37,081 bases of DNA from an uncultured Ardenticatenales bacterium (GTDB lineage Bacteria > Chloroflexota > Anaerolineae > Ardenticatenales > JAADHH01): positions 1 through 37,081 of the forward strand of contig CAYWAK010000003.1 of assembly GCA_964455755.1 (NCBI GenBank), written 5' to 3'. Shown here in pieces: positions 5,485 through 30,799 of the stretch (its first letter is position 1; every line of letters starts with the position of its first letter). Position numbers and translations under genes: made by a program. The notes under the pieces are model-generated. The model did no database searches. It had not been told where the DNA came from and was given only the letters and a program-made list of their open reading frames with translations.

Positions 5485-6780
5485 TCACCTGCGCCAGAAA
5501 GCCCATCTTCTCCCGGCCGGGCGTTGCCGCGCCAATTCCTGTGCCACGTCATCCAGAATCGCACGCTGTGCCGAAACGTCCGCGGAAACCTTCTCCGTCT
5601 CCACGAGCGACAGCCCGGGATAAGCAGAAAAGATCATGACGTGCAACGCATTCGGTTTGACCGTTTGCGCGAAGCGGGCCGTTTTGCGAACCGCCTCCTC
5701 CTTTTGGCCGGGCAGACCGATCATGACAAAGAGCCGCACCGTCAGGCCGATAGACCGCGCCTCCCGGACAACGTCTCGCGTGTGCGCCAGGTAGCGCTGC
5801 GCAGCCGGCTCGTCCGGCACACGACGCAGCGCCACGAGCAATTCGGCATCCGCCGTCTCTAGCCCCAGTTTGATCACACGGCAGCCGGCCTCCTTCATGG
5901 CCCGCAGCAAGGGGGCATCGAAATGCTCCGGGCGCGACTCGCATTCCCACGGCACCGCGAAACGCGCCTCCCGCAACGCGCGACAGAGCGCGACCACGCG
6001 TTCGCGCTCACGGGCAAAGACAGGGTCGCGAAAAATCAGGCGGGGAGGCCGGAATTGCGCAGCCAACCACCCCATCTCGTCGGCCACGCGGAGCGGATCG
6101 CGCCGCCGGAATCGCCGGCCCTGGGCGACCACGTAGGGACAGTAGCCACAAGAATCTGCACACCCCCGGCTGGCTTGCAGCGTGTAAAAGGGGTAGCCGG
6201 GGAGCAAATCCCAGGCCGGCCGGGGCAGAGAATCGAGAGACACGAGCCGCCCCGCATCATCGTAGCCGGAAACGCCAAGGTCTGCGGGCCACAGCGGGCC
6301 GTGTAGACTTTGGGGCGAATCAAAAACGGCATCCACCAGCCGGGGGAAGGCCAGTTCCGGTTCCCCCAAAAGGATGGCGCGCGTCGCACCCGTCGCCTCG
6401 ATCTCCTGCGCCATGAACCGCGTGGCCGGCCCGCAGGCGACCAGGGGTATAGCTGGCAACTGCGCGTGCAGCCGTTGCAGACAGGCCAGGTCGGCCTCCC
6501 GCGTGGCCGGGGAGACGAACACGCCGACCAGGGCCGGATCGTGTGCGGCTACGCGGGCAACCGTTTCGGGCAGGTCCACCCGTCCGGCGACGGCATCCAC
6601 GGCGACGACCGCCCGGCCGGTTTCCCGCACGGCTGCCGCTGTGACGGCCAGCGTCTGCGGCGGGTAGAAGAAGCCGTCCGAACCTGCACGCACCGCGCCC
6701 ATGCCGGCCGCCCCTTCCCGATTCGCGGTCGTGCCCGGCAAGCCGGGCGGGTTCAGCAAAAGGACCGTGCGCCTGCTCAC
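5485..6780 (-). CDS. B12-binding-domain radical SAM enzyme (class B-like)
   Basis: 431 aa. The N-terminal region (LLLNPP...) is typical of the cobalamin-binding Rossmann module. Radical SAM cluster motif CADSCGYC (CxxxCxxC). The GTG start overlaps the upstream stop (GTGA at 6777-6780). Confidence 0.8.
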   Translation of the reverse strand: MSRRTVLLLNPPGLPGTTANREGAAGMGAVRAGSDGFFYPPQTLAVTAAAVRETGRAVVAVDAVAGRVDLPETVARVAAHDPALVGVFVSPATREADLACLQRLHAQLPAIPLVACGPATRFMAQEIEATGATRAILLGEPELAFPRLVDAVFDSPQSLHGPLWPADLGVSGYDDAGRLVSLDSLPRPAWDLLPGYPFYTLQASRGCADSCGYCPYVVAQGRRFRRRDPLRVADEMGWLAAQFRPPRLIFRDPVFARERERVVALCRALREARFAVPWECESRPEHFDAPLLRAMKEAGCRVIKLGLETADAELLVALRRVPDEPAAQRYLAHTRDVVREARSIGLTVRLFVMIGLPGQKEEAVRKTARFAQTVKPNALHVMIFSAYPGLSLVETEKVSADVSAQRAILDDVAQELARQRPAGRRWAFWRR

Positions 6781-8426
6781 CCGCCGCCCCCCGCCGGCGC
6801 CAAACGAAAAACCAAGACACGGCCCTTGTTGCCCGCCTGATCGTAGACCGTCTCCAGTCCTTCCGGCGGGTGGGCCGTATCCAGCAGAAAACGGAGGTGC
6901 GGGCGCAGCACGGTCAGTTCTCGTTCATCTGCGACCAGGTAATCCGCGCCGTGTTGCCGGGCATACGCCAGATAACGGTCAAATTCGGCATGAGGCGAAG
7001 GCACCCAGGGGCGCTCTGCGTAGAGGGCCACAGCGATGTCGCGCGTCAGGATGACCGCTCCGTCCGGCGTGTTCTGGCGCAGCCATAAGCCGGCATCTTT
7101 GTGCCCAAAGTCTGTGTTTTGCAAGCCCTCTTGATAGGCAGCCGGTAGGGAAAGGAGCGAATATGCCAGCACGACGGCCACCGGCAGCAGCCAGATTCCC
7201 TGCCTCCTGCGCGCTCCACCAATCCAGACCGGCCAGGTCGCGCGCAATGTGGCCAGCAGCCAATCGCCAAAGGTCACCAGGCCGTGGGCCGACCAGATGA
7301 GCAGCACGACGAAAACCGGAGCGAAGAAGCGCAGCTCGATGTGGAACGGCAAGAACGTGACCAGCGGCAGCAAGCCAATCACCAACAAGGCCTCCCCACG
7401 CAGCCGGCGGCGCGACCAGGGATCGGTGAACCAGGCCAGAGCCAGGAAAGGCCACAGCAGGAGGGGAAAGGCCGTGCGCCCGATCAAGTCGCTGCGCAGG
7501 GTGTGGGCGTTGCGCGCCATCCGCCGGAGCAAGCCCGCCGGGTCTGCGGCAATAATCTGGGCGACGTTGCGGTCGAAGCGATGCGGTGAGAACCAGATGA
7601 TCTCTTTGCCGCCGGAGTCGAGGCCGGCGGTGACGCGGTCGTACTCGGCCGGGTCACGGTCTTGCACGGCCTGGCCGATGTCCCAGGTGACGGTCAGCTT
7701 GCCGCTAAGCGTCCACTGCCCCGTCTGCGCGTGGAGGTAGCCGAGGTATGGGGTCACCAGGAGGAGCGCAATGGTCACGTAGAACGCAGCACCACCGGCA
7801 GCCAGTCGCGCGTTTTGTGGCCGGTGGAAGTGTGCCGCCGCCAGCCACCAGAGCAAGCCGGCCACGAGAAAACTCACCGCTTCGGGACGTGTCAGGTAGG
7901 CCAGACCGAAAGCCGCGCCGGCCAGGCCCATCGCAGGCCACGATTGTCGTTCGTGCGCGGCCAAGAGCAAAGCCAACCCGCCGAAAATGAGCAGCAAATA
8001 AAGCGGCTCGGTCATCGTGCCCCAGTACAGGACGCTGATGGTGAGGGGAGGGAATATCGCCAGAAGGGCCACGGCCACCCATGCCGTGCGCCGCCCATAG
8101 ATCCGGCGGGAGAGTACCCAGACCGGCACGAGCAACAACGCACCGAAGAGCGCGTAGGCCAGGTCGCTGGCCCGCTCCAGGTTGTGGGTCGCCAGATTAA
8201 AGAAGCCGACAACGAGCGGGTAAAAGGGCGTATAATGAACCTCCGGCACCCATCCCGACGTAAAGCCCTGGCCGCTCCAAAGGTGTTGGCCGAGCAACAA
8301 GTAGTCCGGTTCGTCCCATTTCACCACACGTGGCAGGGCGAAGGTAAGGAACAGACGCAGGGCAAACAGGGTCACGACCGCAACGACAAGTCCTGTTTTG
8401 TCCCGATCAAGCGTCCGACTGTCCAT
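6777..8426 (-). CDS. polytopic GT-C-fold glycosyltransferase, PMT/ArnT (GT39/GT83)-like, paralog A1
   Basis: Many hydrophobic helices. First-loop acidic motif KWDEPDY, then AYLTRPEA, and a soluble C-terminal domain. Alignable along its whole length with 10091-11731. ATG 8424-8426 overlaps the upstream stop (TGATG); the ORF-track start at 8429 is TTG. Confidence 0.8.
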   Translation of the reverse strand: MDSRTLDRDKTGLVVAVVTLFALRLFLTFALPRVVKWDEPDYLLLGQHLWSGQGFTSGWVPEVHYTPFYPLVVGFFNLATHNLERASDLAYALFGALLLVPVWVLSRRIYGRRTAWVAVALLAIFPPLTISVLYWGTMTEPLYLLLIFGGLALLLAAHERQSWPAMGLAGAAFGLAYLTRPEAVSFLVAGLLWWLAAAHFHRPQNARLAAGGAAFYVTIALLLVTPYLGYLHAQTGQWTLSGKLTVTWDIGQAVQDRDPAEYDRVTAGLDSGGKEIIWFSPHRFDRNVAQIIAADPAGLLRRMARNAHTLRSDLIGRTAFPLLLWPFLALAWFTDPWSRRRLRGEALLVIGLLPLVTFLPFHIELRFFAPVFVVLLIWSAHGLVTFGDWLLATLRATWPVWIGGARRRQGIWLLPVAVVLAYSLLSLPAAYQEGLQNTDFGHKDAGLWLRQNTPDGAVILTRDIAVALYAERPWVPSPHAEFDRYLAYARQHGADYLVADERELTVLRPHLRFLLDTAHPPEGLETVYDQAGNKGRVLVFRLAPAGGGG

Positions 8427-9961
8427 CAATTCGCGGTCCTCCCATACACAAAAACGTCCGCCGTTTCCACCGGCCCGCGAAACGAGCGGTTTTCCTGACG
8501 CAGCACGTAGCTCCGGTCGAAGGCCGCCTTGATCGCCCGAATCTGGTCGAAACGGGGGTCGTTAGGGTAAGCGTCAAGGGGGGCAACGAGCCAGACCTGC
8601 CCCGCCGGGCCAAGCGATTGTTGCACAAACTGCAACGTGGGCGTGATCGTGGCGCGCTCCCAGCGCAGGTTGTAGTCCAGCCATTCGATTTCTTCCACGC
8701 GCCGGCCTGGTTCATCGGGAAAGGAGACTTGCGGCAGGCTGCCCCGGTAATAATAGTTAAACGTCGTCGCCAGATAATCCGGGGCAATGACAATCACGTC
8801 TCCCGGCTTGCTGTTCTCCTGGACAAAGGCGGCCACTTCGCGCAGACTGGAGGGGGGCTGGTCCAACTCGGGAATCAAAACGTGCGCCCACAACAGTACG
8901 ACGATGGCAACCGTGGTGACCATAAGGGGCCAAAAGCGCAGGCCAAACACGCCCCGCGCCAGCAGCAGACAGAGGGCCGGATAGACCGCCATCGTGGCGT
9001 AGGAAGGGACCACGCCCAACCCGCTGCCGGTCAGCAGCACCGCCATCAGCAGTGGGCCGGCAATACAGGCCAACATGAGTGTCGGCGCAGGATTCATGTC
9101 CAATCGAAAGGAAAGACTCTCCCGCTCCCGCACCAGAACGAAGGTTCCCAAGAAAAACAGCAGGAACCACAAATAGTAGCGCCCGCCGAGGAAGGCCATT
9201 CCGGTCATTTCGTTGGCAATGCGGAACAGATTGCCCAGCCGCGAGCCTTGCGAGAGCCAGCTTCCGGCCACCACCAAGTGGTGATTTTGCTTCACCAGCA
9301 CCGGAACCCAAGGGAGATATCCCAAACCAACCACGAACTCGGAAGCGAACCAGACACGGAACCGGCTGCGTTCCTCCGCGTTCCATGCCAGCCGAAAGAG
9401 GGCCCATACGCCCTGGCTGGTCACGACGAGCAGCGCCCAGTTGTGGGTGTAGAGCGAGAGAAGAGAGAAGGCCACGTAGGCAACCCAGTCTCTCCGTTGC
9501 CCATCCCGCCAGGCCCGGTACAGGAAGCCCATGGAGAGCGTGGTGAAGAGGGCCAGCAGCGTATACATGCGCGCCTCGTGCGAGACCGACACATGCAAGG
9601 GCAAGCCCGTGCCAAAAGCAGCGGCCAGCAGCCCTGTCCGCGTGTCGAACATCTCCTGTCCCAGCCAAAACAGGAGCGGGATCACGGCGATTCCGGCGAG
9701 AGCAGAGAGCAACCGAATCTGCAGTTCCCCGCGCCCCGCCAGCGGGACCAAGAAGTGCACCAGGAAATGGAAGACGACAGGTGGATGACCGCCCTGGATT
9801 AAGGCCTGTATGATCCCCCCCGGGAACGACTTCAGGGAGACGAAGATTCCCTGGGCTTCATCGCGCCAAAAACCATACGCTCCCAGCCGGTAAAGGCGCA
9901 GGATTGCGCCGGCACCGGTTAGGATGATCAAAATTGCAAGGTCTCGTCGTTTCGTGTTCAT
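8426..9961 (-). CDS. polytopic GT-C-fold glycosyltransferase, GT39 (PMT_2)-like, paralog B1
   Basis: Motifs FWRDEAQG (loop-1 DE) and HEARMYTLLALF, multiple TM helices, C-terminal soluble domain. Alignable with 20896-22407. ATG at 9961 (MNTKRRDL) is preferred over the TTG at 9991 used by the ORF track. Confidence 0.8.
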   Translation of the reverse strand: MNTKRRDLAILIILTGAGAILRLYRLGAYGFWRDEAQGIFVSLKSFPGGIIQALIQGGHPPVVFHFLVHFLVPLAGRGELQIRLLSALAGIAVIPLLFWLGQEMFDTRTGLLAAAFGTGLPLHVSVSHEARMYTLLALFTTLSMGFLYRAWRDGQRRDWVAYVAFSLLSLYTHNWALLVVTSQGVWALFRLAWNAEERSRFRVWFASEFVVGLGYLPWVPVLVKQNHHLVVAGSWLSQGSRLGNLFRIANEMTGMAFLGGRYYLWFLLFFLGTFVLVRERESLSFRLDMNPAPTLMLACIAGPLLMAVLLTGSGLGVVPSYATMAVYPALCLLLARGVFGLRFWPLMVTTVAIVVLLWAHVLIPELDQPPSSLREVAAFVQENSKPGDVIVIAPDYLATTFNYYYRGSLPQVSFPDEPGRRVEEIEWLDYNLRWERATITPTLQFVQQSLGPAGQVWLVAPLDAYPNDPRFDQIRAIKAAFDRSYVLRQENRSFRGPVETADVFVYGRTAN

Positions 9962-10090
9962 TTTGGTTTTGTACGTACAGCGCCTTTCCAAACAAGTGCG
10001 TTGTGCCTTGGAGGCAGCTATCTCACCACAAAGGCCTAAAGAAAAGAAACTCCTCGTATCGCGCGGGGCGTAGGAAACTCTCCCTGTTGC

Positions 10091-11731
10091 CTACTGTCCA
10101 CTCCCTTCATACCGGAAAACGACCAGCTTGTTGTCCGGGTCTTCGTTGTCTTCGTAAACCTCCTTGAGGTCGGGGGGCTGCGTTTCGGGCACGAGCAGCG
10201 GGCTCAACTGCGGCCGCAGTTTGCGGACTTCGTGCTCCTCCAGGACGAAGTATTCGACGCCCTTTGCCTCCGCGTAGGGCCGAATTTCCGGCCAAGTTGC
10301 ATTCGGCGTGGGCACCCAACGGGCGGCATCGGCGTGGAAGGCGATGGCCGGGTAGCGCGACATGACCGTAGCGCCGGCCGGCAGGTTCGCCTTCATCCAC
10401 AGCCCGACATGGCGGTGGGCCGGGTTCCACGATCCCAGGCTGGTGTTTGCGTCCACGCGGGGGATCATCACGGCGAAAAAGGCCACCGAGACGAGCGCCG
10501 GAATCATCAACAAAGCCGCCCCTTGTTTCGGCCCGGATATCCTTCTGCCCGTGATTTCTGCGGCCGTCTCCTTCAGCCATTCTCCCCCTTCCCGAACACC
10601 GTGCGCCGCCCAAATCAGCAAGGAGGGGATGGCCGTGGCGATGTAGCGCTCCTGAATAAAGAAGAGCAGAAAGGCCGTCACCGGCAAGCAGGAAATGAGC
10701 AGAAACCCCTCGCGCCGTACGCGGTCACGATCCCACGGACGGCGGAACCATCCCAGGCACAGGAAGGGCAAAAGGTAGATCGGTATCATCCGCGAGGAAA
10801 TCATCAGGTGGGCGAACTGGGCCACGTTGCGTTTGAACAGCCGCAAGAAGTCTTGCGGATCGGCCAAAATGGTTTGCACCATGCTGACGTTGTAGCTTTG
10901 CCGCGAGAAGAAGAAGACTTCCCGACCGGTGCTGTCCAAACCCCAGGTGGCCCGGTCAAACGTAGCGACGTCGCTGTAGGCCAGGCTCTTGCTGGTGACG
11001 TACGTCACGCCGGCCTTCTCGCTGATCATCCATTCGCCCGTTTCGCCGTGGACGTACACCGCGTAGGGCATGAAGAAGAGCGCGAAACCGGCCACGTAGG
11101 CGGCCAAACGGAGCGCCTCTGATCGCGTGAATAGTTGGCGCTCCAGCAGGCGCACGAGCAAGAAATAGCCACCCACGGCGGCCAGGTAGGCAATTGCCTC
11201 CGGCCGGGTCAGGTAGGCGAGGGCGAACATCGCGCCGGCACCGGCATAGGCCCAGGCCGACCGTTTTTCGAGGGCGAGGAGGGCTGCCAGCAGGCCGGTG
11301 TAGATGAACAGGTAGTAGGGCGGCTCGGTGAGTGTGCCCCAATGGATTACACCGGCGGTAAGCGCCGGGTGCAGCGAGACGAAGAGCAGAGCCACCACAG
11401 CCGTAGGGCGGCCATACATACGTCGCGCCAGCAGGTAGACCGGAAGGCCCAACAGCGCACCGAGTACGATATACCAAATGCGGCTGGCCAGTTCCAGGTT
11501 GTGTGTCACCAGGTAGAGCGCGCCGGTGAGCAACGGATAGAGCGGCGTATGATGGACGTCAGAATAGCCGGTGAAGGTGTAGCCGTGGCCGGTCAGCCAA
11601 TTTCGGCCCAGCCAGAGATAGAACGGCTCATCGCCCCACACAACGCGCTGGGGAGAAGCCAACGCGACGCGCAGGCCGGCCGCCAGGACGATGACGGCTG
11701 CAACCAGCCACCATTCCTGTTTCCTACGCAT
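10091..11731 (-). CDS. polytopic GT-C-fold glycosyltransferase, PMT/ArnT-like, paralog A2
   Basis: 546 aa. WGDEPFY, HHTPLYPL and AYLTRPEA (identical to A1). The C-terminal EVRKLRPQLSPLL...LVVFRY parallels A1 (ELTVLRPHLRFLL...VLVFRL). ATG at 11731 overlaps the DUF2304 stop by 8 nt. Confidence 0.8.
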   Translation of the reverse strand: MRRKQEWWLVAAVIVLAAGLRVALASPQRVVWGDEPFYLWLGRNWLTGHGYTFTGYSDVHHTPLYPLLTGALYLVTHNLELASRIWYIVLGALLGLPVYLLARRMYGRPTAVVALLFVSLHPALTAGVIHWGTLTEPPYYLFIYTGLLAALLALEKRSAWAYAGAGAMFALAYLTRPEAIAYLAAVGGYFLLVRLLERQLFTRSEALRLAAYVAGFALFFMPYAVYVHGETGEWMISEKAGVTYVTSKSLAYSDVATFDRATWGLDSTGREVFFFSRQSYNVSMVQTILADPQDFLRLFKRNVAQFAHLMISSRMIPIYLLPFLCLGWFRRPWDRDRVRREGFLLISCLPVTAFLLFFIQERYIATAIPSLLIWAAHGVREGGEWLKETAAEITGRRISGPKQGAALLMIPALVSVAFFAVMIPRVDANTSLGSWNPAHRHVGLWMKANLPAGATVMSRYPAIAFHADAARWVPTPNATWPEIRPYAEAKGVEYFVLEEHEVRKLRPQLSPLLVPETQPPDLKEVYEDNEDPDNKLVVFRYEGSGQ

Positions 11732-12101
11732 GGTCGCCCCCCGATTCGGCAGCCGGCTGTTCCAGCTCGGCCACGCGTTGGGAAAGAAGAGCTACCTCTT
11801 GCGTCAGCACCTTGATTTGCTCCGTAAAGCGGGAAATGCTGACGGAAAACTGGAACAGGATGAAGAGCAAAAAGAGAAAGAAGAGCACAAAAAGCAGCGC
11901 CGGCGGATAGTCTATGCCAATGGCGTAGGCCAGCACATCCAGCCAGTCAATCGTCAAGGGGGCGATGACCAACGCGGCCCCGGCAAACAGCCAGAGCAAA
12001 GCAAACTCCTCTTTCAGCTTCCGCGTACGCACCAGGTTTATCACAAACGCCAGCACCCCCAGGCTAAGCAAGACGACAAACACTTTAGCCCGTATGGACA
12101 T
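11724..12101 (-). CDS. DUF2304-like small membrane protein (3-4 TM + C-terminal coiled-coil)
   Basis: ATG at 12101 (MSIRAKV...) is preceded by AGGAGG. Hydrophobic core, ...EEFALLWLFAG..., and amphipathic tail QIKVLTQEVALLSQRVAELEQ. This small-protein type usually accompanies GT2 polyprenyl-P-sugar synthases. Confidence 0.65.
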   Translation of the reverse strand: MSIRAKVFVVLLSLGVLAFVINLVRTRKLKEEFALLWLFAGAALVIAPLTIDWLDVLAYAIGIDYPPALLFVLFFLFLLFILFQFSVSISRFTEQIKVLTQEVALLSQRVAELEQPAAESGGDHA

Positions 12102-12130
12102 ACTCTCTCCCCTCCTAACCCTGAAAAGCC

Positions 12131-12207
12131 GGAACAAAAAAAGATGGCCACAGATTTCTCAGATTATTCTTGGTTTTTTCAATCTGTGTCATCCGTGAAA
12201 TCTGTGG
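12131..12207 (-). terminator. long hairpin + T-tract (terminator/attenuator-like) built from CAC[AG]GAT repeats
   Basis: On the minus strand, the arms CCACAGATTTC (12207-12197) and GAAATCTGTGG (12158-12148) flank an inner CAGATT/AATCTG pairing, followed by CCATCTTTTTTTG. Lies between the GT87 stop and the DUF2304 start. Confidence 0.45.
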
Positions 12208-12208
12208 T

Positions 12209-13537
12209 TCATTTTCTTGCCCAGAAAACAAGATTCTCGTTGATTACGTTCCTGCGTGCCAGCACGCCAAAGAACAGACCCCACAAAAGCAGCGTTCCGA
12301 TCAAGATGTGAGACTGAATCAAACGGATCACAAAGCGCACGTTGAACGAAAACTCCCGGCCGACGAGGAGATAGGCCGCCACCAGAAGAATCGTCACCGC
12401 CCAGGGAAATGGGTTCTGGTGCGTCGCCCATCGCCAAATGACAATGAAGGGGAGCAGCAACCAGACAAAAGCATAGATTTGGGAGTGCGGCGAGACCAGC
12501 AGTAAGACAACCACTGCAAAGGCATACTCCAACGTGAATCTTTCGCCGTCCGGTTCACTCTTTCCCCACGTGACGGCCAGGAAGGGCAACGTGACCACTG
12601 CGCCGGCCAGCAAGGTCAGGGACCAGGCCAGCGCCGGACTGTCTATCCCCCGCACCGGCGTCACGAAAAGGTTGGCGGTGAACGCGCGACTGAAGAATCC
12701 GCTGAGGGACTGGTTGTAGGGAAAAGCGGCGAACCCCCCACGGCTGTACACCGAGGTAAAGGCCAGGTAACGCGGGATGTTGTCCAGCCCCACAACGGCA
12801 TACGAAAGGATGAGCAAGGTCAACGCACTACCGATTCCCCATGCCGCAGATTTCCAGCGCCGCTTCCAAAGGAGGAAGCCGATCAACGCACCGGGGAAGA
12901 ACTTCAACGCGGTGGCCATGCCCAAAGAGAGTCCGGCCAACCCCTCTCGCCGATTTCTCAAAGCCCACAGCGCCGCCGCCAGCAGGATGAACTGGGCGAT
13001 TTCCATTTGCCCCAGCCGCAAGGCCACCGTGGCCGGGTAGAACTGGTAGAGCAGCAGCAATGTCGCCAGGCCGAGTGTCCAGGTGAGCCGTCCCAGGGCA
13101 AGGAGGGTCAGCGCACAACCGCCCCACAAGAATAGGAAATTCGCCACCGTCCAGCCGGCGGCGGCGTTCGCATACGGGATCCAGGTCAGCGGCAGAAACA
13201 GAATCGCGGCCAGCGGCGGGTAGGCATAGGGCCAAACTGTGTCCGGGTTCTTCAGCACAAACGAACCGCTTTCAATCGCGGTCTGGAACGCCGGCAAGTC
13301 ATGGTAAATATCCTGCCCGTTTCGCAGCCGCACGGCAGCCTGGTAAAAGACCGCAAAGTCATGGTTATTGGTGATGGCCCACACGTGGGCATAATCGAGG
13401 GCCAGCAAAACCGTCAGGCCGGCGAGGAGCAGCCAGCGCCCCCAGGCCGCACGGTCGTCGAAAACGCGCACGCCCACGTCAGACCTCTTCGCCCCGGCTT
13501 TCAAGGTACGCCTCCAGGGCCTTTTCCATGGGCGCAA
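12209..13537 (-). CDS. GT87 / DUF2029-family polytopic mannosyltransferase-like protein (PimE-like GT-C)
   Basis: 442-aa hydrophobic ORF with an N-terminal loop motif NNHDFAVFYQAAVRLRNGQDIY typical of DUF2029/GT87. Start is uncertain: 13537, or GTG at 13477 one nt after the upstream stop. Confidence 0.7.
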   Translation of the reverse strand: MRPWKRPWRRTLKAGAKRSDVGVRVFDDRAAWGRWLLLAGLTVLLALDYAHVWAITNNHDFAVFYQAAVRLRNGQDIYHDLPAFQTAIESGSFVLKNPDTVWPYAYPPLAAILFLPLTWIPYANAAAGWTVANFLFLWGGCALTLLALGRLTWTLGLATLLLLYQFYPATVALRLGQMEIAQFILLAAALWALRNRREGLAGLSLGMATALKFFPGALIGFLLWKRRWKSAAWGIGSALTLLILSYAVVGLDNIPRYLAFTSVYSRGGFAAFPYNQSLSGFFSRAFTANLFVTPVRGIDSPALAWSLTLLAGAVVTLPFLAVTWGKSEPDGERFTLEYAFAVVVLLLVSPHSQIYAFVWLLLPFIVIWRWATHQNPFPWAVTILLVAAYLLVGREFSFNVRFVIRLIQSHILIGTLLLWGLFFGVLARRNVINENLVFWARK

Positions 13538-14360
13538 AGCGGAACCGGTTGAGAATCCTGGCCAGTTTGACCAGCGTGCTGTCTATGTTGTGGTAAGTAA
13601 TGAAACTGTCCTGCGGCGAAAGGTTTGCCACGTGTGGCGTTCCCGGATACGTTTCCCAGGGATGGACGTAGAGCGTGAACGGAATTCCGCCGGCGTTGAG
13701 CCTGCGCAGCCCCCACGTAAGGAGCGAAAGCGGAAACAAGCGGAGGTAGAAACCGCCGGCCAGCGGAATCTTCACTGGCCCGGCTTGAACCACAGGCATG
13801 GGAAACTCCCACAACAGCCCCCGGCCCGGGGCGTCCTTCGTTACATCTTCCGTATGCAAGCGGTACGGCGTAGGGGGGCAAGTATCCACGCCGTATAGCG
13901 GCGTGCGCATCGGAAAAATGCTCGAATCGTAGCGATAGCCGGCTTCGGAAAGGACACGAATGGCCCAGTTCGTTTGCTGGTTCAGGGAAAAGGTCGGTGC
14001 GCGAAATCCGGCGGTGGCGAAGTCCGCGCCCAGGAGATCACGGGTGAGTTCGGCGAAGGCGGCAACCTCCTCCCGAAAGGCCTCTTCCCCCATCTGATGG
14101 AGGAGCCGGTGGGACATGGTGTGGAAGGCGATCTCGTGTCCTTCGTCATGGAGGGTGCGCACAAGTGCAGGGTGCCGGCGGGCGATCTCTCCCACGAAGA
14201 AGAAAGTTGCCCGCACACCCTGGCGGCGAAACAAGTGTCGCAAGGGAGCCAAAGCTTCCTCTACTTGCGAGATCCTTTCGGTTTCGGGCACACGGTGGCG
14301 CACGATTTCAGCATGGTACCACGCTTCCACATCAACCGTAAGGGCATTGACAATTTTCAT
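13479..14360 (-). CDS. polysaccharide deacetylase (NodB fold) with DUF3473-type C-terminus
   Basis: MKIVNALTVDVEAWYH..., HEIAFHTMSH metal/His motifs, and C-terminal LAGGFYLRLFP typical of DUF3473 deacetylases. ATG at 14360 overlaps the upstream GT2 stop (ATGA). The ORF-track start at 14453 is rejected. Confidence 0.8.
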   Translation of the reverse strand: MKIVNALTVDVEAWYHAEIVRHRVPETERISQVEEALAPLRHLFRRQGVRATFFFVGEIARRHPALVRTLHDEGHEIAFHTMSHRLLHQMGEEAFREEVAAFAELTRDLLGADFATAGFRAPTFSLNQQTNWAIRVLSEAGYRYDSSIFPMRTPLYGVDTCPPTPYRLHTEDVTKDAPGRGLLWEFPMPVVQAGPVKIPLAGGFYLRLFPLSLLTWGLRRLNAGGIPFTLYVHPWETYPGTPHVANLSPQDSFITYHNIDSTLVKLARILNRFRFAPMEKALEAYLESRGEEV

Positions 14361-15112
14361 AAGCGACCACGTCCGTTTAGATTGGTTTTCTGTCGCAGTT
14401 CGACAACCAGGATAGACAAGAGCATCTTGAAAACGTAGTAGAGGGGTTTCCATCCGGCGTGCATAGACCGGCCGCTGAGCCGGTCTCTGATCGTCACCGG
14501 AACCTCTTTCACGCGAAAGCCGGCGTATTTCAGGAGGAGGATGGTGTCGGCATCGGGATAATCGGTCGGGTAATTGTCACGGGCAAAAAAACGCATCACC
14601 TCCCCGCTCAAGCACTGGAAGCCAGAGGTGGGGTCGGTGAATCGCTGCTTGCCCATGCGGTCCACGATTTTCCGAAAGAAGGCCATGCCCAGTCGCCGGG
14701 TGAGGGGAACCTGGTACATTGCCCGGCCCAGGAAGCGGGAGCCCAGAGCGACGTCTGCCTGCCCCGTTTGCACGACAGAGAGGAGCGCTGGGACGCTATG
14801 CGGGTCGTGTTGCCCATCGGCATCCATCAGCAGGCCGAGGGCGTAGCCGCGCTCCGAGGCATAGCGGAAACCGGTCTGCACCGCCCCTCCGTATCCGAGG
14901 TTGCAGGGCAATTGCACAACCTTCGCTCCCAAACGGTGCGCCACCGCCGCCGTCTCATCGGCGGAGCAGTCATCCACGACCAGGATGTCCGCCTCGCGCA
15001 ACACTTCGCGCAGCTCGGCGATCACGCGCGGCAAGTTTTCGGCTTCGTTGTACGCCGGCATAATGACGATGGGCCGGGCCGCCGCCACTTGATTTTCCAC
15101 CGAGCTGCTCAT
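14357..15112 (-). CDS. GT2 glycosyltransferase, polyprenyl-phosphate sugar synthase-like (ArnC/GtrB/CsbB-like)
   Basis: IVIMPAYNEAENL, VVDDCSADET and MDADGQHDP (DxD region), with a hydrophobic C-terminal helix YYVFKMLLSILVVEL. ATGA overlaps at both ends. Confidence 0.8.
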   Translation of the reverse strand: MSSSVENQVAAARPIVIMPAYNEAENLPRVIAELREVLREADILVVDDCSADETAAVAHRLGAKVVQLPCNLGYGGAVQTGFRYASERGYALGLLMDADGQHDPHSVPALLSVVQTGQADVALGSRFLGRAMYQVPLTRRLGMAFFRKIVDRMGKQRFTDPTSGFQCLSGEVMRFFARDNYPTDYPDADTILLLKYAGFRVKEVPVTIRDRLSGRSMHAGWKPLYYVFKMLLSILVVELRQKTNLNGRGRL

Positions 15113-15873
15113 CCTTCCCGCCCCACCTGTTTACGGTAAGCGGCTACCCAGGCATCCCAGGGTAGCCCTCCCCACCGCAATCGAAAGACCGTATACATTG
15201 CTTTCGCGATCTCTATTTTCGAGATTTTGGACGATCCCCGTTGCCGGTTCTCAAAAATGATCGGCACCTCCCCGATCCGAAAGCCCAATTCCTGACACTT
15301 GTAGATCATCTCAATCAGAAAAGAATAGCCGCTGGAAAATATCTGGTCAAGCGGTATCGCCTGCAGAACCTCGCGCCGGTAACAGCGAAATCCGGCGGTA
15401 CAATCGTGCGCGTGCAGGCCGAGCATCGTTTTGGCCACCCCGTTTGCCCCGCGACTGAGCATCTTCCGCGACCAGGTGCAATAGCGGGTTCCGCCTCCCG
15501 GCACGTATCGCGAGCCGATCACGACATCGCAGTCGCTCATGGCCTGCAACATGCTCGGAATGTAGCGCGGGTTGTGGGAGAAATCAGCATCCATGGTCAC
15601 GATGTAGTCAACGTCCCGCGCAAAGGCGTGCCGAAAGCCGGCGATGTAGGCCGTGCCCAATCCCAACTTGCTCGCACGGTGGATTACAGAGATTTCTTTG
15701 TGCGTTCCGGCCAGATCGTCGGCCAATTGCCCGGTGCCGTCGGGCGAGTTGTCGTCTACCACGACCGGCATCAGACCCAGGTCAAGCGCCAGGAGTTGCT
15801 CAATCAGGCTGGGTAAGTTCTCGATTTCGTTGTAGGTGGGGACAATTACGGCCGTCCTCTTTTCCTTGCTCAT
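15109..15873 (-). CDS. GT2 polyprenol-monophosphomannose synthase-like (Ppm1/DPM1-like)
   Basis: VIVPTYNEIENL, VVDDNSPDGTG, TMDADFSHNP and VIGSRY follow the classic DPM1/Ppm1 pattern. ATG at 15873 (MSKEKR) is preferred; the ORF-track start at 15894 is TTG. Confidence 0.8.
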   Translation of the reverse strand: MSKEKRTAVIVPTYNEIENLPSLIEQLLALDLGLMPVVVDDNSPDGTGQLADDLAGTHKEISVIHRASKLGLGTAYIAGFRHAFARDVDYIVTMDADFSHNPRYIPSMLQAMSDCDVVIGSRYVPGGGTRYCTWSRKMLSRGANGVAKTMLGLHAHDCTAGFRCYRREVLQAIPLDQIFSSGYSFLIEMIYKCQELGFRIGEVPIIFENRQRGSSKISKIEIAKAMYTVFRLRWGGLPWDAWVAAYRKQVGREG

Positions 15874-15898
15874 AGGAATGACCTGTCTTCGCAATTCA

Positions 15899-18058: not shown

Positions 18059-19018
18059 CTAGCGCTCCCGACACACAATTACATCGTCAGGGGTCATGAC
18101 CGTATCCACGATGTCCTCGGAGCCGGTCACCTGCGTGCCGGCGAAGAGCAGAGAGTCCCGAATGGTGATCGGCCGGCTGACCGTTACGCCATCGCCGATG
18201 ACGGAATTTATCACCTGCGTTTCCGGAGCCAGGCGGACGTTCTGGCCCACAACGTTATCCAATCCCAGGCGTTCCCTTTGGCGACGGTTACAACCCAGCA
18301 GATCGCAGGCCAGGGTGATATTCATGTCCCATTTGACCACTTCCGCGGGATAGACAGGGTAGCCATCGTCAATCAAAATCTGGATCGAGTTGGTTATCTC
18401 GTATTCGTCACGTTGCGCTGTGCGCGGAGTACGGCGAATGGCGTCGAATATCACTTGATCGAAGAGATAAATGCCGCATCCTTTCAGGTCGGTGTTTACG
18501 TAGCGCGGTTTTTCGATCACACGGGTAACGATACCGCTGGCATGAAGGATGACGGCGAAATTGCGCCGGATATACTCCGGGTTCGACTCCCGTTTCACGG
18601 CCAGCACTCCGCCGGCGCGGCGCGCCCAAAACATGTCGACCATTGTCTGCAGGTCTTTATTGACCATGAAAATGTCCCCAAGGAAAAGGAGGAAGGGGGA
18701 ATCAATCTGGTCTTCGAGTTGCAGCACGGCGTGCGCTATGCCAAGTGTTTCTCCCTGATCAATGTAATGGAGCTTCATGCCCCAGGCAGACCCGTCTCCC
18801 AACTCCTTTGGCATCTTCTCCTTCAAGTGACCCACGACGACGAAGACTTCCTTTATGCCAATGCGTTTCATGTCCTCGATTTGGTATTGGATGATCGGTT
18901 TGTTACACACCGGCAGCAAGGGTTTGGGATAGCGCAAACTGAGGGGCTTGATCCGCGTGCCCCGTCCGGCAGCCAAGATTACACCGACCAGCTTATTCTC
19001 AGTGGTCAATTCATTCAC
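18059..19018 (-). CDS. sugar-1-phosphate nucleotidyltransferase (NTP_transferase + left-handed beta-helix tail)
   Basis: GVILAAGRGTRIKPLSLRYPKPLLPV matches the GxGTRxxPxxxxxPK signature. The C-terminus has hexapeptide-repeat character. Start is GTG 19018, or TTG 19009 after GGAGG. Sugar and nucleotide specificity cannot be determined. Confidence 0.8.
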   Translation of the reverse strand: MNELTTENKLVGVILAAGRGTRIKPLSLRYPKPLLPVCNKPIIQYQIEDMKRIGIKEVFVVVGHLKEKMPKELGDGSAWGMKLHYIDQGETLGIAHAVLQLEDQIDSPFLLFLGDIFMVNKDLQTMVDMFWARRAGGVLAVKRESNPEYIRRNFAVILHASGIVTRVIEKPRYVNTDLKGCGIYLFDQVIFDAIRRTPRTAQRDEYEITNSIQILIDDGYPVYPAEVVKWDMNITLACDLLGCNRRQRERLGLDNVVGQNVRLAPETQVINSVIGDGVTVSRPITIRDSLLFAGTQVTGSEDIVDTVMTPDDVIVCRER

Positions 19019-19030
19019 CTCCGAGGTACG

Positions 19031-20899
19031 TTATTTTATTTCGTACACCAGCAAGTTATCCTGCAAAAACGATTGCTTATCGCCGTAAAGAAACTCCGAT
19101 GGCGGAACCAGGGGAGAAACCGGAAGCAAGCGTAACAACCGGTCGCCGGCATACAGGCTCCGGTCCGTTCCGGCCCAGACCAATTCTATTCCGGGCGTAT
19201 GATTCAACGTGTCTATCGCGTCCGGGTTCGAACTGGCCATGCTTTCCTGCGCGATGATGATGTACCGCACGCCCCAGCTTCGCAAAAGGTCCAGCGCCGG
19301 CCGGCCGGGAAAAGTCTCCAGCGGAGCCGCCGCGGCTTGATAATCTGCCGGCACAAAGGTTCCGTACCCATAGGCAACCGGTTTGCCATGCCAGCGCGCC
19401 TCGTAGAGCGGGTAGCCGAACCAGGTGCGGTCCAGAGGGAACTGGATGACCAGTCCCTGGCCGGGCTGTTTGGCCAGCCATACATCAACCGGCTGCGGCT
19501 GCACCCGCGCATATCCCAGAGCATAGGGCATGGGCGCAAACTCAACAATGATCCCCGCACAGAGCAAAGCGACAACGAACCGGTTCCGCCAACGCCCCAC
19601 GAGATATGCGGCCCCCACGCCGCTCAGTACGGCCACACCAAGCAAGACAAACAGCCCAAAGCGAGTCCATACGCGCATGGCGCTGAAAAAGGGCATGAAA
19701 AGGTACAGCAACAGTGTCGGCATCGGAATCACAATCGCGCCCTGTACTCCCATGTCCCACCGTGGAACAGGGTTCAGGGCCAGTGTTGTCGAAAGCCAAC
19801 TCACTCCCCTTTCGAAAGCAAATTGCACATTGACCGGAACAGCCAGATGGACAGGATTTCTGCCCACGTGTAAGGTTGTTCCCAGGGCCAGCACAAAAGC
19901 ACCCATGGCGAGCCATCCGAAGACACGGGCGGCAGCGTTACGCCTCCTCCATCCGATCCAGGCCAAGGCCAGCGGAATCCATCCTACGAAAAGGACATTC
20001 TCAAACACATTTTGCGGGTACAGGCCGGCGACGACGCTTCCCCACAACGGGTGCATGATATTCGGCACCACAAAATCCAGCGGGCTGGCCGACCACTGAT
20101 CAACATATCGCAACGAATAGGGCACAGCTTGGCGTCCTGTCGTCTGCAACAACGGCCCCAAGGCGGGCAAAAGCACGATACCGGCTACGGCAATCAGCAA
20201 GCCCAACCCGGTAGCCCATTGTACCGCAAATGTTCTTTTTCGCCAAAGGCGACCCCGCAACACGAAGTAGGCCAAAACAAATAGGCCCATCATGTAGGCA
20301 TAATACCACGACGAGAGGCCGGTCAAGCCCAGGAAGAGTCCGCCCATCGCCGCATCGCGCAACCGTTTGCGGCGCATCATTCGTTCGAGGTAGAAGAATG
20401 TGAGAGGAATCCATTGCGTCCCCATCAACGGCAGGTGGCCGGCACCCAAATGAGCGAAGCGATAGGGCGCAAAGGCGAAGACAAGACCGGTCACCAGTCC
20501 CGCTACGCGCCGTCTGGAAATCGCGTAGCCCAGCAGATAGCCGGTAAAAGCGGAGAGCACGAACGAAGCCACCATCACGGCGTTGTAGGAAAGCACTTCG
20601 CCGAAAAGTATCGTAAGCGGAAAGCCGATCAGCATGTTGGACAGCGTCGTTTCGGAAAGGGCCAGCGGGTAGCCAAACGGCGCAAACACCCCCGGGATAA
20701 AGAAGGGCGCTATTCCTTTGGCCAGCAGAGCATCTTTGAACCACCACATCTTGTAGAGATATTCAAAATTGTCACCGGGTGGACCCAAAATGATGCTCCC
20801 CGGATGAGCAACGAGTGGATAGGTCATGAGCAAGGTGATCAGCAGGCTCAACGAAAGAATGCCGGCATAGCTTTTGATCGGCGCGTGTCGGGAAGTCAC
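19031..20899 (-). CDS. large polytopic membrane protein, GT-C-like, distant paralog (C2) of 15899-18058
   Basis: 622 aa, strongly hydrophobic. The segment AGLVTGLVFAFAPYRFAHLGAGHLPLMGTQWIPLTFFYLER aligns with AGALIAGAVYLLFPFHLHTAVDWWEHALFWALLPLPLWWYER of C1. The GTG start overlaps the upstream stop (GTGA). Confidence 0.6.
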   Translation of the reverse strand: MTSRHAPIKSYAGILSLSLLITLLMTYPLVAHPGSIILGPPGDNFEYLYKMWWFKDALLAKGIAPFFIPGVFAPFGYPLALSETTLSNMLIGFPLTILFGEVLSYNAVMVASFVLSAFTGYLLGYAISRRRVAGLVTGLVFAFAPYRFAHLGAGHLPLMGTQWIPLTFFYLERMMRRKRLRDAAMGGLFLGLTGLSSWYYAYMMGLFVLAYFVLRGRLWRKRTFAVQWATGLGLLIAVAGIVLLPALGPLLQTTGRQAVPYSLRYVDQWSASPLDFVVPNIMHPLWGSVVAGLYPQNVFENVLFVGWIPLALAWIGWRRRNAAARVFGWLAMGAFVLALGTTLHVGRNPVHLAVPVNVQFAFERGVSWLSTTLALNPVPRWDMGVQGAIVIPMPTLLLYLFMPFFSAMRVWTRFGLFVLLGVAVLSGVGAAYLVGRWRNRFVVALLCAGIIVEFAPMPYALGYARVQPQPVDVWLAKQPGQGLVIQFPLDRTWFGYPLYEARWHGKPVAYGYGTFVPADYQAAAAPLETFPGRPALDLLRSWGVRYIIIAQESMASSNPDAIDTLNHTPGIELVWAGTDRSLYAGDRLLRLLPVSPLVPPSEFLYGDKQSFLQDNLLVYEIK

Positions 20900-22407
20900 G
20901 TTTTCGTCCTCGCTACCTGAAAGAGGGAAACTTCCACCCCAAAGTACGTGCGCCTATCGAGCTGCACGAGCCGCCCATCGCTTTGGAACACTTGGTCCAA
21001 AGCGTGGCCGGGGGCGTGGCTCCGGACAATCCAGAGACGGCGGTGTCCGACGATGGCATCATCCAGCAGTTTGCCCAGTTCCTGGGGATTGTCCTCCCCC
21101 CTCCATACGCGCTGCTCGTCGGTGACGTGACGATAATAACGATTGAAGGGAATGAAGATGTCCCCATCTACCAGAAAGATCACGTCGTTTGGCCGCGCCC
21201 GGCTGTCCACGTAGGCCGCAGCGCCACGCCAATCTTCTTTCTGCGGAAGCTGGTATAAGTTGAGCAAGGACACGAATGACAACAGAACCAGAGCCAGGGC
21301 CAGGGGCCATTGAATCCAGCGAATCTGGATGGAAGCAATGCCCAGGCCCAGCCACAGAGAATAGGCAGGGAGGAGCGGAATCAGATAGCGGGTAATGAAC
21401 ATCGGCGTGAATTGCGAGGCCACGTAGGCCAGGAGCAAGGGCAACAAGAAATAGAGGACGGCGAAGAGCATCCGGTCATGGCTTGCTTCTCCCCCCTGAG
21501 GGCCGTTCGCGAACGACAAAAGGGGGCTTATCGCGCCGGCCAGCAGCACCAACGCAAAGATTCCCATGGCGGCCAGTCGCCAGATGTGCGAATCGGGAAA
21601 GGTCACGCCCACGCTGAACTGTTGCCAGACGACAAGCAGGTTGCCAATGTGTGGCGGCCCGTACTTTCTGGCGACCCATCCCCACCAACCATGCCGTTGC
21701 TGGTAAATCAACCCAACCAGCCAGAGCAATGCGACCAGGAACACGGCAACTTGAGACAGAATCCAGCGCTGCAAGAACGGCCGGCCGGTATTGCGCCGCC
21801 CCGCGTGAATCAAGGCAAAGAGGTTTTGGAAAATCACGACCAGGACAGCAACGTAATGGGCATACAAGGCGAGACAAGCGGAAACAATCATCGCCACCCA
21901 ATCCATGTTCCATCTGTCATTTTGATCTCTGAGAATACGGGCAAAGAAGAGCACAGAAGCCAGGCTGAACATGCTGGCAAAGATATACATCCGCGCTTCT
22001 TGAGAATACCAAACATGGAGGGGAGATATTGCCAGGATAGCAGCGCTCCACAATCCCACCGTGCGATCGAAAAGCGTTCTCCCCAAGAGGTAAAGTATCC
22101 AAACGCTGCCCCATCCGGCAAGCGCGGAGGGCAGACGCACAAATGTGTCCCCTTCGCCGAGCTGTATCCAGAAATGGAGGAACAGATGATACAGATTGCG
22201 GTCAGAGAAAGGCAGACCGGCAAAATGGGTCAACGAGAGTTCGTGAAGAGAGCGATGGGCGAACGCAACGCTGTAGGCCTCGTCATACCAGAAGCTCTCG
22301 CTCCCCAGGCCGTACAGACGAAGAACGGCGGCAAGCAGCAAGATTGCCGCCAACAGATAGGTAGTTTTTTGGGCATCGACTGTTTCATTCGTTCCAAAGA
22401 AATTCAT
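20896..22407 (-). CDS. polytopic GT-C-fold glycosyltransferase, GT39 (PMT_2)-like, paralog B2
   Basis: 503 aa. FWYDEAYS and QEARMYIFASMF. The C-terminal domain DVIFLVDGDIFIPFNRYYR...LWIV parallels B1. ATG at 22407. First gene of the long operon. Confidence 0.8.
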   Translation of the reverse strand: MNFFGTNETVDAQKTTYLLAAILLLAAVLRLYGLGSESFWYDEAYSVAFAHRSLHELSLTHFAGLPFSDRNLYHLFLHFWIQLGEGDTFVRLPSALAGWGSVWILYLLGRTLFDRTVGLWSAAILAISPLHVWYSQEARMYIFASMFSLASVLFFARILRDQNDRWNMDWVAMIVSACLALYAHYVAVLVVIFQNLFALIHAGRRNTGRPFLQRWILSQVAVFLVALLWLVGLIYQQRHGWWGWVARKYGPPHIGNLLVVWQQFSVGVTFPDSHIWRLAAMGIFALVLLAGAISPLLSFANGPQGGEASHDRMLFAVLYFLLPLLLAYVASQFTPMFITRYLIPLLPAYSLWLGLGIASIQIRWIQWPLALALVLLSFVSLLNLYQLPQKEDWRGAAAYVDSRARPNDVIFLVDGDIFIPFNRYYRHVTDEQRVWRGEDNPQELGKLLDDAIVGHRRLWIVRSHAPGHALDQVFQSDGRLVQLDRRTYFGVEVSLFQVARTKT

Positions 22408-22464
22408 CGTGCCCCTATTATATTCTCACTTCTCTGCCTGCGCGAATCTTGCGATTTCGGGGTT

Positions 22465-23841: not shown

Positions 23842-23863
23842 TTGTCACTCTCCCTGTAAACAA

Positions 23864-30797: not shown

Positions 30798-30799
30798 CC

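Follow-up and report, generated by a model that had tools for sequence, protein, structure and literature searches.

The window analysed here is a stretch of 37,081 nucleotides (nt) from an uncultured Ardenticatenales bacterium (Chloroflexota, Anaerolineae; NCBI GenBank assembly GCA_964455755.1, contig CAYWAK010000003.1, positions 1 to 37,081 of the forward strand), and its subject is an operon of thirteen genes, g1 to g13, that encodes seven GT-C-type membrane proteins next to enzymes that would make and tailor their sugar donors. A six-frame list of open reading frames (ORFs) combined with a start-codon scan tiles positions 5485-22407 with 13 consecutive minus-strand ORFs, running from g1 at the 22407 end to g13 (aa, amino acids; TM, transmembrane; LbH, left-handed beta-helix; DPMS, dolichol-phosphate-mannose synthase; HexNAc, N-acetylhexosamine; SAM, S-adenosylmethionine):

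20896-22407, minus strand: g1, PMT_2-type GT-C protein, 503 aa; Pfam PMT_2 53.3 bits against a cut-off of 26.1
19031-20899, minus strand: g2, YfhO/DUF6311-like GT-C protein, 622 aa; in Pfam only PTPS_related, 24.8 against 26.4
18059-19018, minus strand: g3, sugar-1-phosphate nucleotidylyltransferase, 316-319 aa, with a short LbH tail, predicted cytoplasmic; Pfam NTP_transferase 119 bits
15899-18058, minus strand: g4, YfhO-like GT-C protein, 719 aa, with a C-terminal beta-rich domain and a final TM helix
15109-15873, minus strand: g5, DPMS-like GT2 polyprenyl-phosphate-sugar synthase, 254 aa, no TM helix; Pfam Glycos_transf_2 114.7 bits
14357-15112, minus strand: g6, PpgS-like GT2 protein, candidate polyprenyl-phosphate-HexNAc synthase, 251 aa, no TM helix; Pfam Glycos_transf_2
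13479-14360, minus strand: g7, CE4/NodB-type deacetylase with DUF3473, 293 aa; Pfam DUF3473 115 bits, Polysacc_deac_1 60.8 bits
12209-13504, minus strand: g8, GT87 (PimE-like) GT-C protein, 422-431 aa; Pfam GT87 111.9 bits against 25
11724-12101, minus strand: g9, DUF2304 small membrane protein, 125 aa, 3 TM helices; Pfam DUF2304 83.7 bits against 25.5
10091-11731, minus strand: g10, PMT_2-type GT-C protein, 546 aa; Pfam PMT_2 49.6 bits
8426-9961, minus strand: g11, PMT_2-type GT-C protein, 501-511 aa; Pfam PMT_2 47.8 bits
6777-8426, minus strand: g12, PMT_2-type GT-C protein, 549 aa; Pfam PMT_2 48.1 bits
5485-6780, minus strand: g13, AprD4-like radical SAM protein with a B12-binding-like domain, 431 aa, predicted cytoplasmic; Pfam Radical_SAM 47, B12-binding 34.1 bits

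Most junctions within this run are overlaps or abutments. GTGA at 20896-20899 joins g1 and g2, the TAG stop of g3 abuts the ATG of g4 at 18059/18058, ATGA overlaps join g5 to g6 (15109-15112) and g6 to g7 (14357-14360), g9 and g10 share 8 nt (11724-11731), and g11/g12 and g12/g13 are connected by TGATG at 8424-8428 and by GTGA at 6777-6780, respectively. The g6/g7 overlap requires an internal ATG of g7 at 14360 (giving 293 aa), and gene calling on an independent assembly chose this start as well. Larger gaps are limited to 12102-12208 and 9962-10090, and the other spacings amount to 12 nt for g2/g3, 4 or 25 nt for g4/g5 (depending on the choice of start) and about 1 nt or an overlap for g7/g8. 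All overlaps, abutments and gaps quoted in the initial annotation are present, and so is the domain content that it stated (four PMT_2, GT87, NTP_transferase with LbH, two Glycos_transf_2, Polysacc_deac_1 with DUF3473, DUF2304, and B12-binding with Radical_SAM). Independent gene calls on a near-identical metagenome contig (L001, L082) gave the same genes with mostly the same starts. The 13 genes thus form a real, tightly packed operon, and their clustering goes beyond chance because independent assemblies and distant relatives show the genes in the same order. As already noted in the initial annotation for the operon, and extending to the whole window, there are no genes for an initiating phosphoglycosyltransferase (PGT), Wzx, Wzy, a chain-length regulator or a polysaccharide ABC exporter, as judged by Pfam and NCBIfam scans; the sole ABC system in the window is a complete Liv-type importer for branched-chain amino acids.

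GT-C proteins and probable donor enzymes of the operon

Judged by sequence family and predicted fold, all seven large membrane proteins are GT-C proteins, namely four of the PMT_2 type, two YfhO-like and one of family GT87. Five of them (the four PMT_2 proteins and the GT87 protein) pass the Pfam gathering scores, whereas g2 and g4 remain below; the earlier assignment of all seven to GT-C therefore stands, with the qualification that structure models were needed for these two. The match of g4 to Pfam YfhO (PF09586), for example, reaches 27.6 bits against a gathering score of 28.5 and covers the C-terminal 48 residues alone, and precomputed PF09586 matches are found in most g4 and some g2 homologues. 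Homologues of both proteins were gathered and aligned, their structures were predicted with AlphaFold2, and the models were compared with the PDB by Foldseek, a check suggested in the initial annotation. The g2 model (pLDDT 87, pTM 0.89) retrieved STT3, AglB, PglB, DPY19, ArnT and ALG12 at E values of 1e-9 to 1e-4, and the g4 model (pLDDT 79, pTM 0.81) AftD, STT3, DPY19, PglB, AftA and ArnT at 1e-8 to 2e-4, all of which points to GT-C folds; below these matches, both lists contain unrelated transporters at low probability. An hhalign comparison (99.4%, E 1e-21) shows the g2 and g4 families to be homologous; their relationship to the PMT_2 group is only marginal. As a marker of the cluster, g2 is by sequence conserved more widely than any other gene, with more than 335 homologues, mostly from Chloroflexota.

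Each of the seven proteins has 5-8 or more TM segments by a crude count from hydropathy. Just after TM1, all four PMT_2 proteins carry the loop-1 DE motif that had been described for them (YDEA, RDEA, GDEP and WDEP; FWYDEAY in g1, FWRDEAQ in g11 and KWDEPDY in g12), and the respective D34 and E35 are invariant across the g10/g12 orthologues. Further candidate loop-1 acidic residues are D43, invariant in g2, E46, invariant in g4, and an HDF motif in g8. By motif, these acidic residues are putatively catalytic. The PMT_2 proteins failed a test for specific similarity to ArnT (GT83) and match the broad Pfam family alone, and g8, for which the solved structure 9dm5 ('Mannosyltransferase') was retrieved at E 9e-4, is by its sequence a member of GT87 and not an ortholog of PimE. 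Paralogues within the operon share 38.6% (g10/g12), 30% (g1/g11) and 31% (g5/g6) identity, which marks these pairs as old; a recent amplification of paralogues was rejected, the GT-C pairs being only 30-39% identical.

Two GT2 proteins of the DPMS/PpgS type are co-encoded, both with an intact DAD motif, and suggest that the GT-C proteins use polyprenyl-phosphate-linked sugars as donors. The top PDB match of g5 is the Pyrococcus dolichol-P-mannose synthase (5mlz, E 7e-34), followed by ArnC; g6 likewise matches DPMS (1.8e-17) and ArnC, although more weakly than g5. The nucleotidylyltransferase g3 has rmlA_long and Arch_glmU as its best NCBIfam matches, all under their cut-offs, and RmlA, GDP-mannose pyrophosphorylase and GlmU match it alike in the PDB, so that its matches point to no one sugar in particular. 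Two genes downstream of g6 lies g9. In other bacteria, the DUF2304 protein GacJ binds and stimulates the GlcNAc-P-undecaprenol synthase GacI, and Rv3632 of the same family stimulates PpgS (10.1101/180810); g9 may thus be a GacJ/Rv3632-type partner of a GT2 synthase.

The deacetylase g7 has kept its HTMSH (HxxxH) metal motif and is probably cytoplasmic, as it has neither a signal peptide nor a TM helix or hydrophobic segment; in the PDB, it matches deacetylases of chitin and peptidoglycan. Identification as a PEP-CTERM/XrtA exopolysaccharide locus was rejected, because g7 stays under the cut-off of TIGR03006 and the window holds no exosortase or PEP-CTERM genes. In g13, the CX3CX2C motif reads CADSCGYC, and the top PDB match is AprD4 (6fd2, E 2.7e-26, residues 4-393 of 431), an enzyme that acts with the reductase AprD3 in the deoxygenation of paromamine at its glucosamine ring (PMC5461906). 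Tailoring of hopanoid side chains (HpnI/K/J) was also rejected, as the HpnJ match is confined to the radical SAM core and hopanoid genes are missing. DegT, formyltransferase or dehydrogenase genes, which would be required for the ArnA/ArnB steps, were not found in the window.

Conservation and accessory genes in relatives

All 13 proteins were mapped onto 73 genome loci that encode relatives of g2, from which two sets were drawn: loci with an 'orthologous g2' (at least 41% identical, with at least 9 kb of downstream sequence; n=19) and loci with a 'paralogous g2' (less than 41% identity; n=20). The genomes that come closest carry the label Ardenticatenales or Chloroflexota, their g2 being 81-82% (L008, L009) or 65% (L010) identical. 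The complete 13-gene order is kept in four loci at about 80-95% amino-acid identity (L002, L003, L008, L086), and g6 together with g7 lies downstream of g2 in 17 of the 19 orthologous-g2 loci, as compared to none of the 20 paralogous-g2 loci; in the two remaining loci, g2 is a second copy, and each genome has a full cluster as well. The conservation of the gene neighbourhood, on which the initial annotation had made its proposal depend, is hence borne out among both close and more distant Chloroflexota.

The remaining genes follow the same pattern. Among the 19 orthologous-g2 loci, g9 and a g5-type GT2 gene are each present in 15, g4 in 12, g10 in 11, and g8 and g3 in 10 each, whereas none of the 20 paralogous-g2 loci has any of these neighbours, and one or two PMT_2 genes lie directly upstream of g2 in 19 of 22 loci. 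Core proteins are 30-65% identical in the 17 loci; g3 still shows 63-69% identity in distant ones, g6 58-66% and g10, which directly follows the DUF2304 gene, 49-55%. The positive loci come from metagenome-assembled genomes labelled Anaerolineales, Ardenticatenales, Caldilineae, Ktedonobacterales and unclassified Chloroflexota. As the linkage is kept with orthologous and absent with paralogous g2, the core (PMT_2)-(PMT_2)-g2 ... g6-g7-(g8)-g9-g10 is a feature of the class and not a peculiarity of this contig.

At the same places within the related clusters, Pfam-annotated contexts reveal variable inserts, including genes for DegT aminotransferases, GNAT or hexapeptide acyltransferases, epimerases/dehydratases of the short-chain dehydrogenase/reductase (SDR) type, a carbamoyltransferase and SAM-dependent methyltransferases. 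Most related clusters (heads of L011-L037) begin with a B12-radical SAM protein of about 490 aa that is 22-29% identical to g13; in L081 (2346-4810), this head gene is followed by a 334-aa radical SAM-SPASM enzyme, and such an enzyme also heads L007. Locus L081 moreover encodes a 118-aa EamA/SMR-like (SMR, small multidrug resistance) membrane protein directly 5' of g2 (9630-9986), which by its sequence is a flippase candidate. None of these three gene types of the relatives (the ~490-aa B12-radical SAM, the radical SAM-SPASM and the EamA/SMR-like gene) occurs in the window.

In more distant Chloroflexota, homologues of g13 itself (45-47% identity) are directly followed by an SDR and a hexapeptide acyltransferase gene in L084 (10001-12959) and L085 (10001-12865), and have them nearby in L031 (2400-8942). 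In L085, the trio stands alone, away from GT-C genes. By analogy, this set looks like a sugar-tailoring module of the AprD4/AprD3 type, and the DegT, acyltransferase, SDR and EamA/SMR-like inserts of the relatives would fit tailored amino-sugar donors. A conserved core with variable tailoring genes is typically the pattern of a surface-glycan locus. Large secreted proteins of about 1000-1170 aa are also encoded in or beside related clusters (L031 12020-18446; L084 14594-20795); they bear CBM96/disaggregatase repeats and esterase/peptidase_S9 domains, to which the pair in L031 adds CarboxypepD_reg and dockerin.

Proposed pathway, precedents and alternatives

We consider it reasonably probable, with substantial doubt remaining, that the operon specifies a three-component glycosylation system in expanded form, similar to the Arn and PpgS pathways, that uses polyprenyl-phosphate-sugar donors and acts on a non-protein acceptor in the envelope. 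Family and fold, intact motifs, location by hydropathy and conserved linkage are the observations on which the following scheme builds, its chemistry being deduced from them. On the cytoplasmic face, g3 would supply a nucleoside diphosphate (NDP)-sugar, g5 would load one sugar onto polyprenyl phosphate, and g6, aided by the DUF2304 protein g9, would load another. At the inner face, g7 would strip the N-acetyl group from the g6 product to give a lipid-linked amino sugar, as ArnD does, and g13 may tailor a sugar further, most likely the amino sugar. The donors would then be flipped outward by a flippase encoded elsewhere, and the seven diverged GT-C proteins would each attach donor sugars on the outer face, with linkage or position differing from one protein to the next. 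The run g6-g7-(g8)-g9-g10 would form the branch for the amino sugar; as g10 always follows the g6-g7-g9 block in a conserved position, it is the best candidate for the transferase of this branch.

The lack of a PGT, Wzx, Wzy or ABC exporter suggests that all transfers would use monophosphate-linked single sugars and, in combination with the ratio of two synthases to seven transferases, favours a glycan that is assembled or extensively branched on the outside. The acceptor may be a polysaccharide linked to the wall or a glycan with a lipid anchor, the assembly being comparable to that of lipomannan/lipoarabinomannan (LM/LAM) mannan and arabinogalactan (AG) arabinan in Corynebacteriales. The logic set out in the initial annotation, which leads from sugar activation via lipid-linked donors to transfers outside the membrane, is thus kept as the best reading. 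Its description of the pathway as self-contained had to be given up, given that the operon contains no flippase, no genes for acceptor synthesis, and a g13 without SDR or acyltransferase partners.

Every module of this scheme has a characterised counterpart, but no operon protein reaches any of the respective equivalog thresholds. The galactosamine (GalN) modification of AG in mycobacteria and corynebacteria (PpgS Rv3631, Rv3632 and the GT-C protein Rv3779) shares with the operon a PpgS-like GT2 (g6), a DUF2304 partner and a GT-C protein, and there, too, the lipid-linked HexNAc is expected to be deacetylated to the hexosamine before or after transfer. According to reviews, the deacetylase step and the flippase of the mycobacterial pathway are unidentified (PMC9671496, PMC5964476). 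The operon differs from it by its explicit deacetylase g7, six additional GT-C proteins, a second GT2 and the radical SAM protein, and g6 is distant from PpgS proper. In the Arn pathway, a GT2 loads an N-acylated amino sugar onto undecaprenyl phosphate, a CE4 enzyme deacylates it in the cytoplasm and a PMT_2 GT-C protein transfers it outside; the genes in the operon come in the same order, and relatives add DegT and SMR-like genes. However, ArnA, ArnB and a flippase are absent from the window, g7 and g10 show no specific relationship to ArnD and ArnT, and we know of no lipid A in Chloroflexota.

With three-component systems (GtrA/B/*, CsbB/GtcA/YfhO, GacI/J/K/L and the GT136 pentofuranose systems), the operon has in common a synthase that serves GT-C proteins on the outside, and it contains YfhO-like (g2, g4) as well as GacJ-like (g9) components (PMC11127046, PMC5836110). 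These systems differ from the operon in that it combines seven GT-C proteins with two synthases, lacks a flippase gene, includes a deacetylase and a radical SAM protein, and represents a large core locus conserved across a class rather than a small accessory cassette. The formation of LM/LAM and AG in Corynebacteriales (Ppm1, PimE, MptA/B/C, Emb, Aft) is the only characterised case known in which sets of GT-C enzymes polymerise whole domains on the outer face from polyprenyl-phosphate single sugars. LM/LAM mannan and AG arabinan provide the precedent for the assembly proposed here (PMC5964476, PMC3485146). The operon resembles it in the GT87 enzyme and the DPMS-like synthase and differs in belonging to another phylum and in having no PimA/PimB, Emb or Aft orthologues and no decaprenylphosphoryl-arabinose (DPA) pathway, with g8 being distant from PimE. 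The earlier statement that characterised loci hold one or a few GT-C genes overlooked the mycobacterial arabinogalactan cluster, in which Rv3779, AftA, EmbC/A/B and AftB (about six GT-C genes) lie within about 30 genes.

For g13, finally, the AprD4/AprD3 and HpnI/HpnK/HpnJ systems are instructive, in which a glycosyltransferase and a deacetylase first create the glucosaminyl substrate of the radical SAM enzyme; in relatives of the operon, an SDR accompanies g13 in the way AprD3 accompanies AprD4. Here, the scores are far under the cut-offs, and the window has neither an SDR partner nor aminoglycoside or hopanoid genes. Taken together, the system is an expansion and recombination of known modules and not a new principle; the initial annotation had itself named ArnC/D/T, CsbB/YfhO and Ppm1/PimE as analogies. 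Different here are the combination of the modules in one operon and the conservation across a class of another phylum, as well as an explicit deacetylase and tailoring by a radical SAM protein. In the literature, we found no characterised system of this composition, as the initial annotation had maintained, and no paper on the cluster or on GT-C enzymes in Chloroflexota.

Several observations weigh against the proposed pathway. The identities of the sugars, the acceptor and the product are all inferred, and co-transcription and translational coupling are read from gene spacing; as promoter and terminator scans performed no better than on shuffled sequence, the boundaries of the operon are likewise set by spacing. 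No GtrA, SMR, MATE or Wzx-type flippase gene was found in the operon or the window. Searches with g1, g10 and a 16-sequence g10/g12 profile against solved structures returned no GT-C protein, ArnT included, at E ≤ 1, so that the subfamily assignment of the PMT_2 proteins could not be refined, and this family also holds relatives of protein O-mannosyltransferases, which makes a protein acceptor possible. Comparison with NCBIfam models gave 76.4 bits for g8 with the PRK13375 mannosyltransferase (equivalog cut-off 413), 104.6 bits over the full length for g6 with its best match PpgS (NF058614; equivalog cut-off 370), 225.5 bits for g7 with the XrtA-system polysaccharide deacetylase TIGR03006 (276.2), and 119 and 109.4 bits for g13 with its top match HpnJ (578) and with AprD4 (NF033070; 500), respectively. 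Against solved structures, g7 did not match ArnD, and its substrate could instead be an NDP-sugar or a finished polymer precursor. Unlike in relatives, there is no SDR or acyltransferase partner for g13 in the window.

The possible protein acceptor leads to a different reading, which we regard as rather unlikely: a protein O-glycosylation machine, in which the PMT_2 and perhaps the YfhO-like proteins would transfer and extend sugars on an S-layer protein or on Ser/Thr-rich linkers of lipoproteins and other secreted proteins, as an elaborated version of the actinobacterial Ppm1/Pmt system. The loop-1 DE motif of the four PMT_2 proteins is typical of PMT, some PMT_2 proteins of orthologous clusters in relatives also match PF02366 PMT, g5 is similar to DPMS/Ppm1, and the GH99-like lipoprotein encoded beside the operon has a Pro/Thr-rich linker of a kind that is O-mannosylated in Actinobacteria. 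However, PMT_2 also includes ArnT and many transferases with non-protein acceptors, none of the four PMT_2 proteins in the operon matches PF02366 (E ≤ 0.01) or any solved Pmt structure, a branch of PpgS-like GT2, DUF2304 protein and deacetylase is known only from the decoration of polysaccharides or lipids, and glycolipids or teichoic acids are the substrates of those GT87 and YfhO-type enzymes that have been characterised. Transfer to protein is also part of a further scenario, in which g2 would act as an oligosaccharyltransferase that moves a lipid-pyrophosphate oligosaccharide en bloc, with the rest of the operon supplying or trimming the glycan. We hold this to be extremely improbable: STT3, AglB and PglB are the top Foldseek matches of g2 (E 1e-9 to 1e-7, TM-scores of about 0.5), but ArnT and DPY19 give similar TM-scores, g2 is homologous to the YfhO-like g4 and its homologues carry YfhO/DUF6311 Pfam matches, inspection by eye revealed no WWDYG-type motif in the conserved columns, and an initiating phosphoglycosyltransferase or Wzx is not encoded nearby.

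The operon may alternatively comprise several independent decoration systems side by side, with each GT-C protein adding one side-chain sugar to a polymer made elsewhere. All characterised three-component systems decorate pre-formed polymers (PMC11127046, PMC5836110), with Gtr seroconversion, GacI/J/L and CsbB/YfhO as models, the accessory content differs among relatives like that of serotype loci, and genes for acceptor synthesis are absent from the operon. Seven GT-C proteins are nevertheless served by only two lipid-sugar synthases, the core order conserved across orders suggests one coordinated pathway, and mycobacterial GT-C sets demonstrate that whole domains can be polymerised; overall, we find independent decoration quite unlikely. 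It overlaps with the pathway proposed above, the one difference being the share of the glycan that is made on the outer side. A charge modification in the manner of Arn, which would mainly serve to equip a membrane lipid or wall polymer with a cationic amino sugar as resistance against antimicrobial peptides and leave the other GT-C proteins as unrelated paralogues, could draw on the parallel of GT2, CE4 deacetylase and PMT_2 protein to ArnC-ArnD-ArnT, on ArnC as one of the best matches of g5 and g6, and on the ArnB-like DegT and ArnE/F-like SMR/EamA genes of relatives. It appears very improbable in view of the differences from the Arn pathway listed above (ArnA, ArnB, ArnD, ArnT and lipid A), and would leave six further conserved GT-C proteins and the second GT2 unexplained.

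The outer-face pathway can also be stated in a bolder form, namely as a class-wide, PGT-independent assembly line on the outer face that builds a major and previously undescribed envelope glycopolymer of Anaerolineae-type Chloroflexota from two lipid-monophosphate sugars, one of them bearing a free amine and tailored by the radical SAM protein. We regard this form as conceivable and rather doubtful. If it were true, no lipid-linked HexNAc deacetylase of a PpgS-type pathway would have been identified before g7, and g13 would represent a new sugar-modifying radical SAM activity. The combination of lipid-linked single sugars with GT-C enzymes is already well established, and the system accordingly derives its value from scale, conservation and an unusual kind of tailoring.

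Sediments, hot springs and wastewater sludge harbour abundant Anaerolineae, and the Chloroflexota envelope is poorly understood, with one versus two membranes being debated; to our knowledge, these bacteria have no lipopolysaccharide. A GT-C-dominated locus that is conserved across orders thus offers a genetic handle on a lineage-specific surface glycan. In addition, the operon supplies candidates for the lipid-linked HexNAc deacetylase of PpgS-type pathways, a gap in mycobacteria, and for extending the substrate range of AprD4-like radical SAM enzymes beyond antibiotic pathways.

Flanking genes and further observations

The following genes of the window lie outside the operon:

4072-5385, plus strand: GH99/WbsX-like lipoprotein; Pfam Glyco_hydro_99 113 bits, LLIAGC lipobox, ~45-residue Pro/Thr-rich linker
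22465-23841, same strand as the operon: selA, upstream of g1, with a 57-nt gap to the operon
24240-25640, same strand as the operon: dnaA, upstream of selA
31526-32650: alanine racemase, adjoining the PMT_2 gene at 32657-34468
32657-34468, minus strand: PMT_2 GT-C-type gene, 603 aa
34502-36862, minus strand: DUF2298 GT-C-type gene, 786 aa, 390 bits

The GH99-like gene is convergent on the end of g13 and still adjoins it in a relative of about 80% identity. It is possible, from its sequence, that the lipoprotein is a glycan-processing enzyme or a substrate of O-glycosylation, and as such a candidate link to the operon. Counting the PMT_2 gene at 32657-34468 and the DUF2298 gene at 34502-36862, the window holds nine GT-C-type genes within 37 kb; GT-C enzymes appear to be generally abundant in the source genome.

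Upstream of the operon, the spacer between dnaA and selA (23920-24232) contains six DnaA boxes in about 310 bp, three of which are perfect TTATCCACA, and the whole window has 11 DnaA-box matches against 4.4 +/- 2 expected. Judged from these boxes, the spacer is probably oriC, and a 123-aa ORF at 23845-24216 was rejected as a gene, as it has no family match and is full of DnaA boxes. The GT-C operon starts about 1.5 kb from this putative origin and is co-directional with the leftward fork. A TATAAT hexamer lies about 9 nt 5' of the ATG of g1 (22408-22430, minus strand) and hints at a leader that is very short or absent, a weak lead given that the scan overall was not above chance; the same applies to a promoter-like ATGACA-18-AATAAT in the g8/g9 gap (12192-12163, minus strand). 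The window contains no RNA family according to Rfam and no tRNA according to ARAGORN. The plus-strand flanks at 109-4023 and 26388-31513 encode a patatin-like phospholipase with a cyclic-nucleotide (cNMP)-binding domain, an OmpR-type regulator, a HAMP histidine kinase and the Liv importer, of which the phospholipase, the regulator and the kinase stay syntenic with the operon in close relatives.

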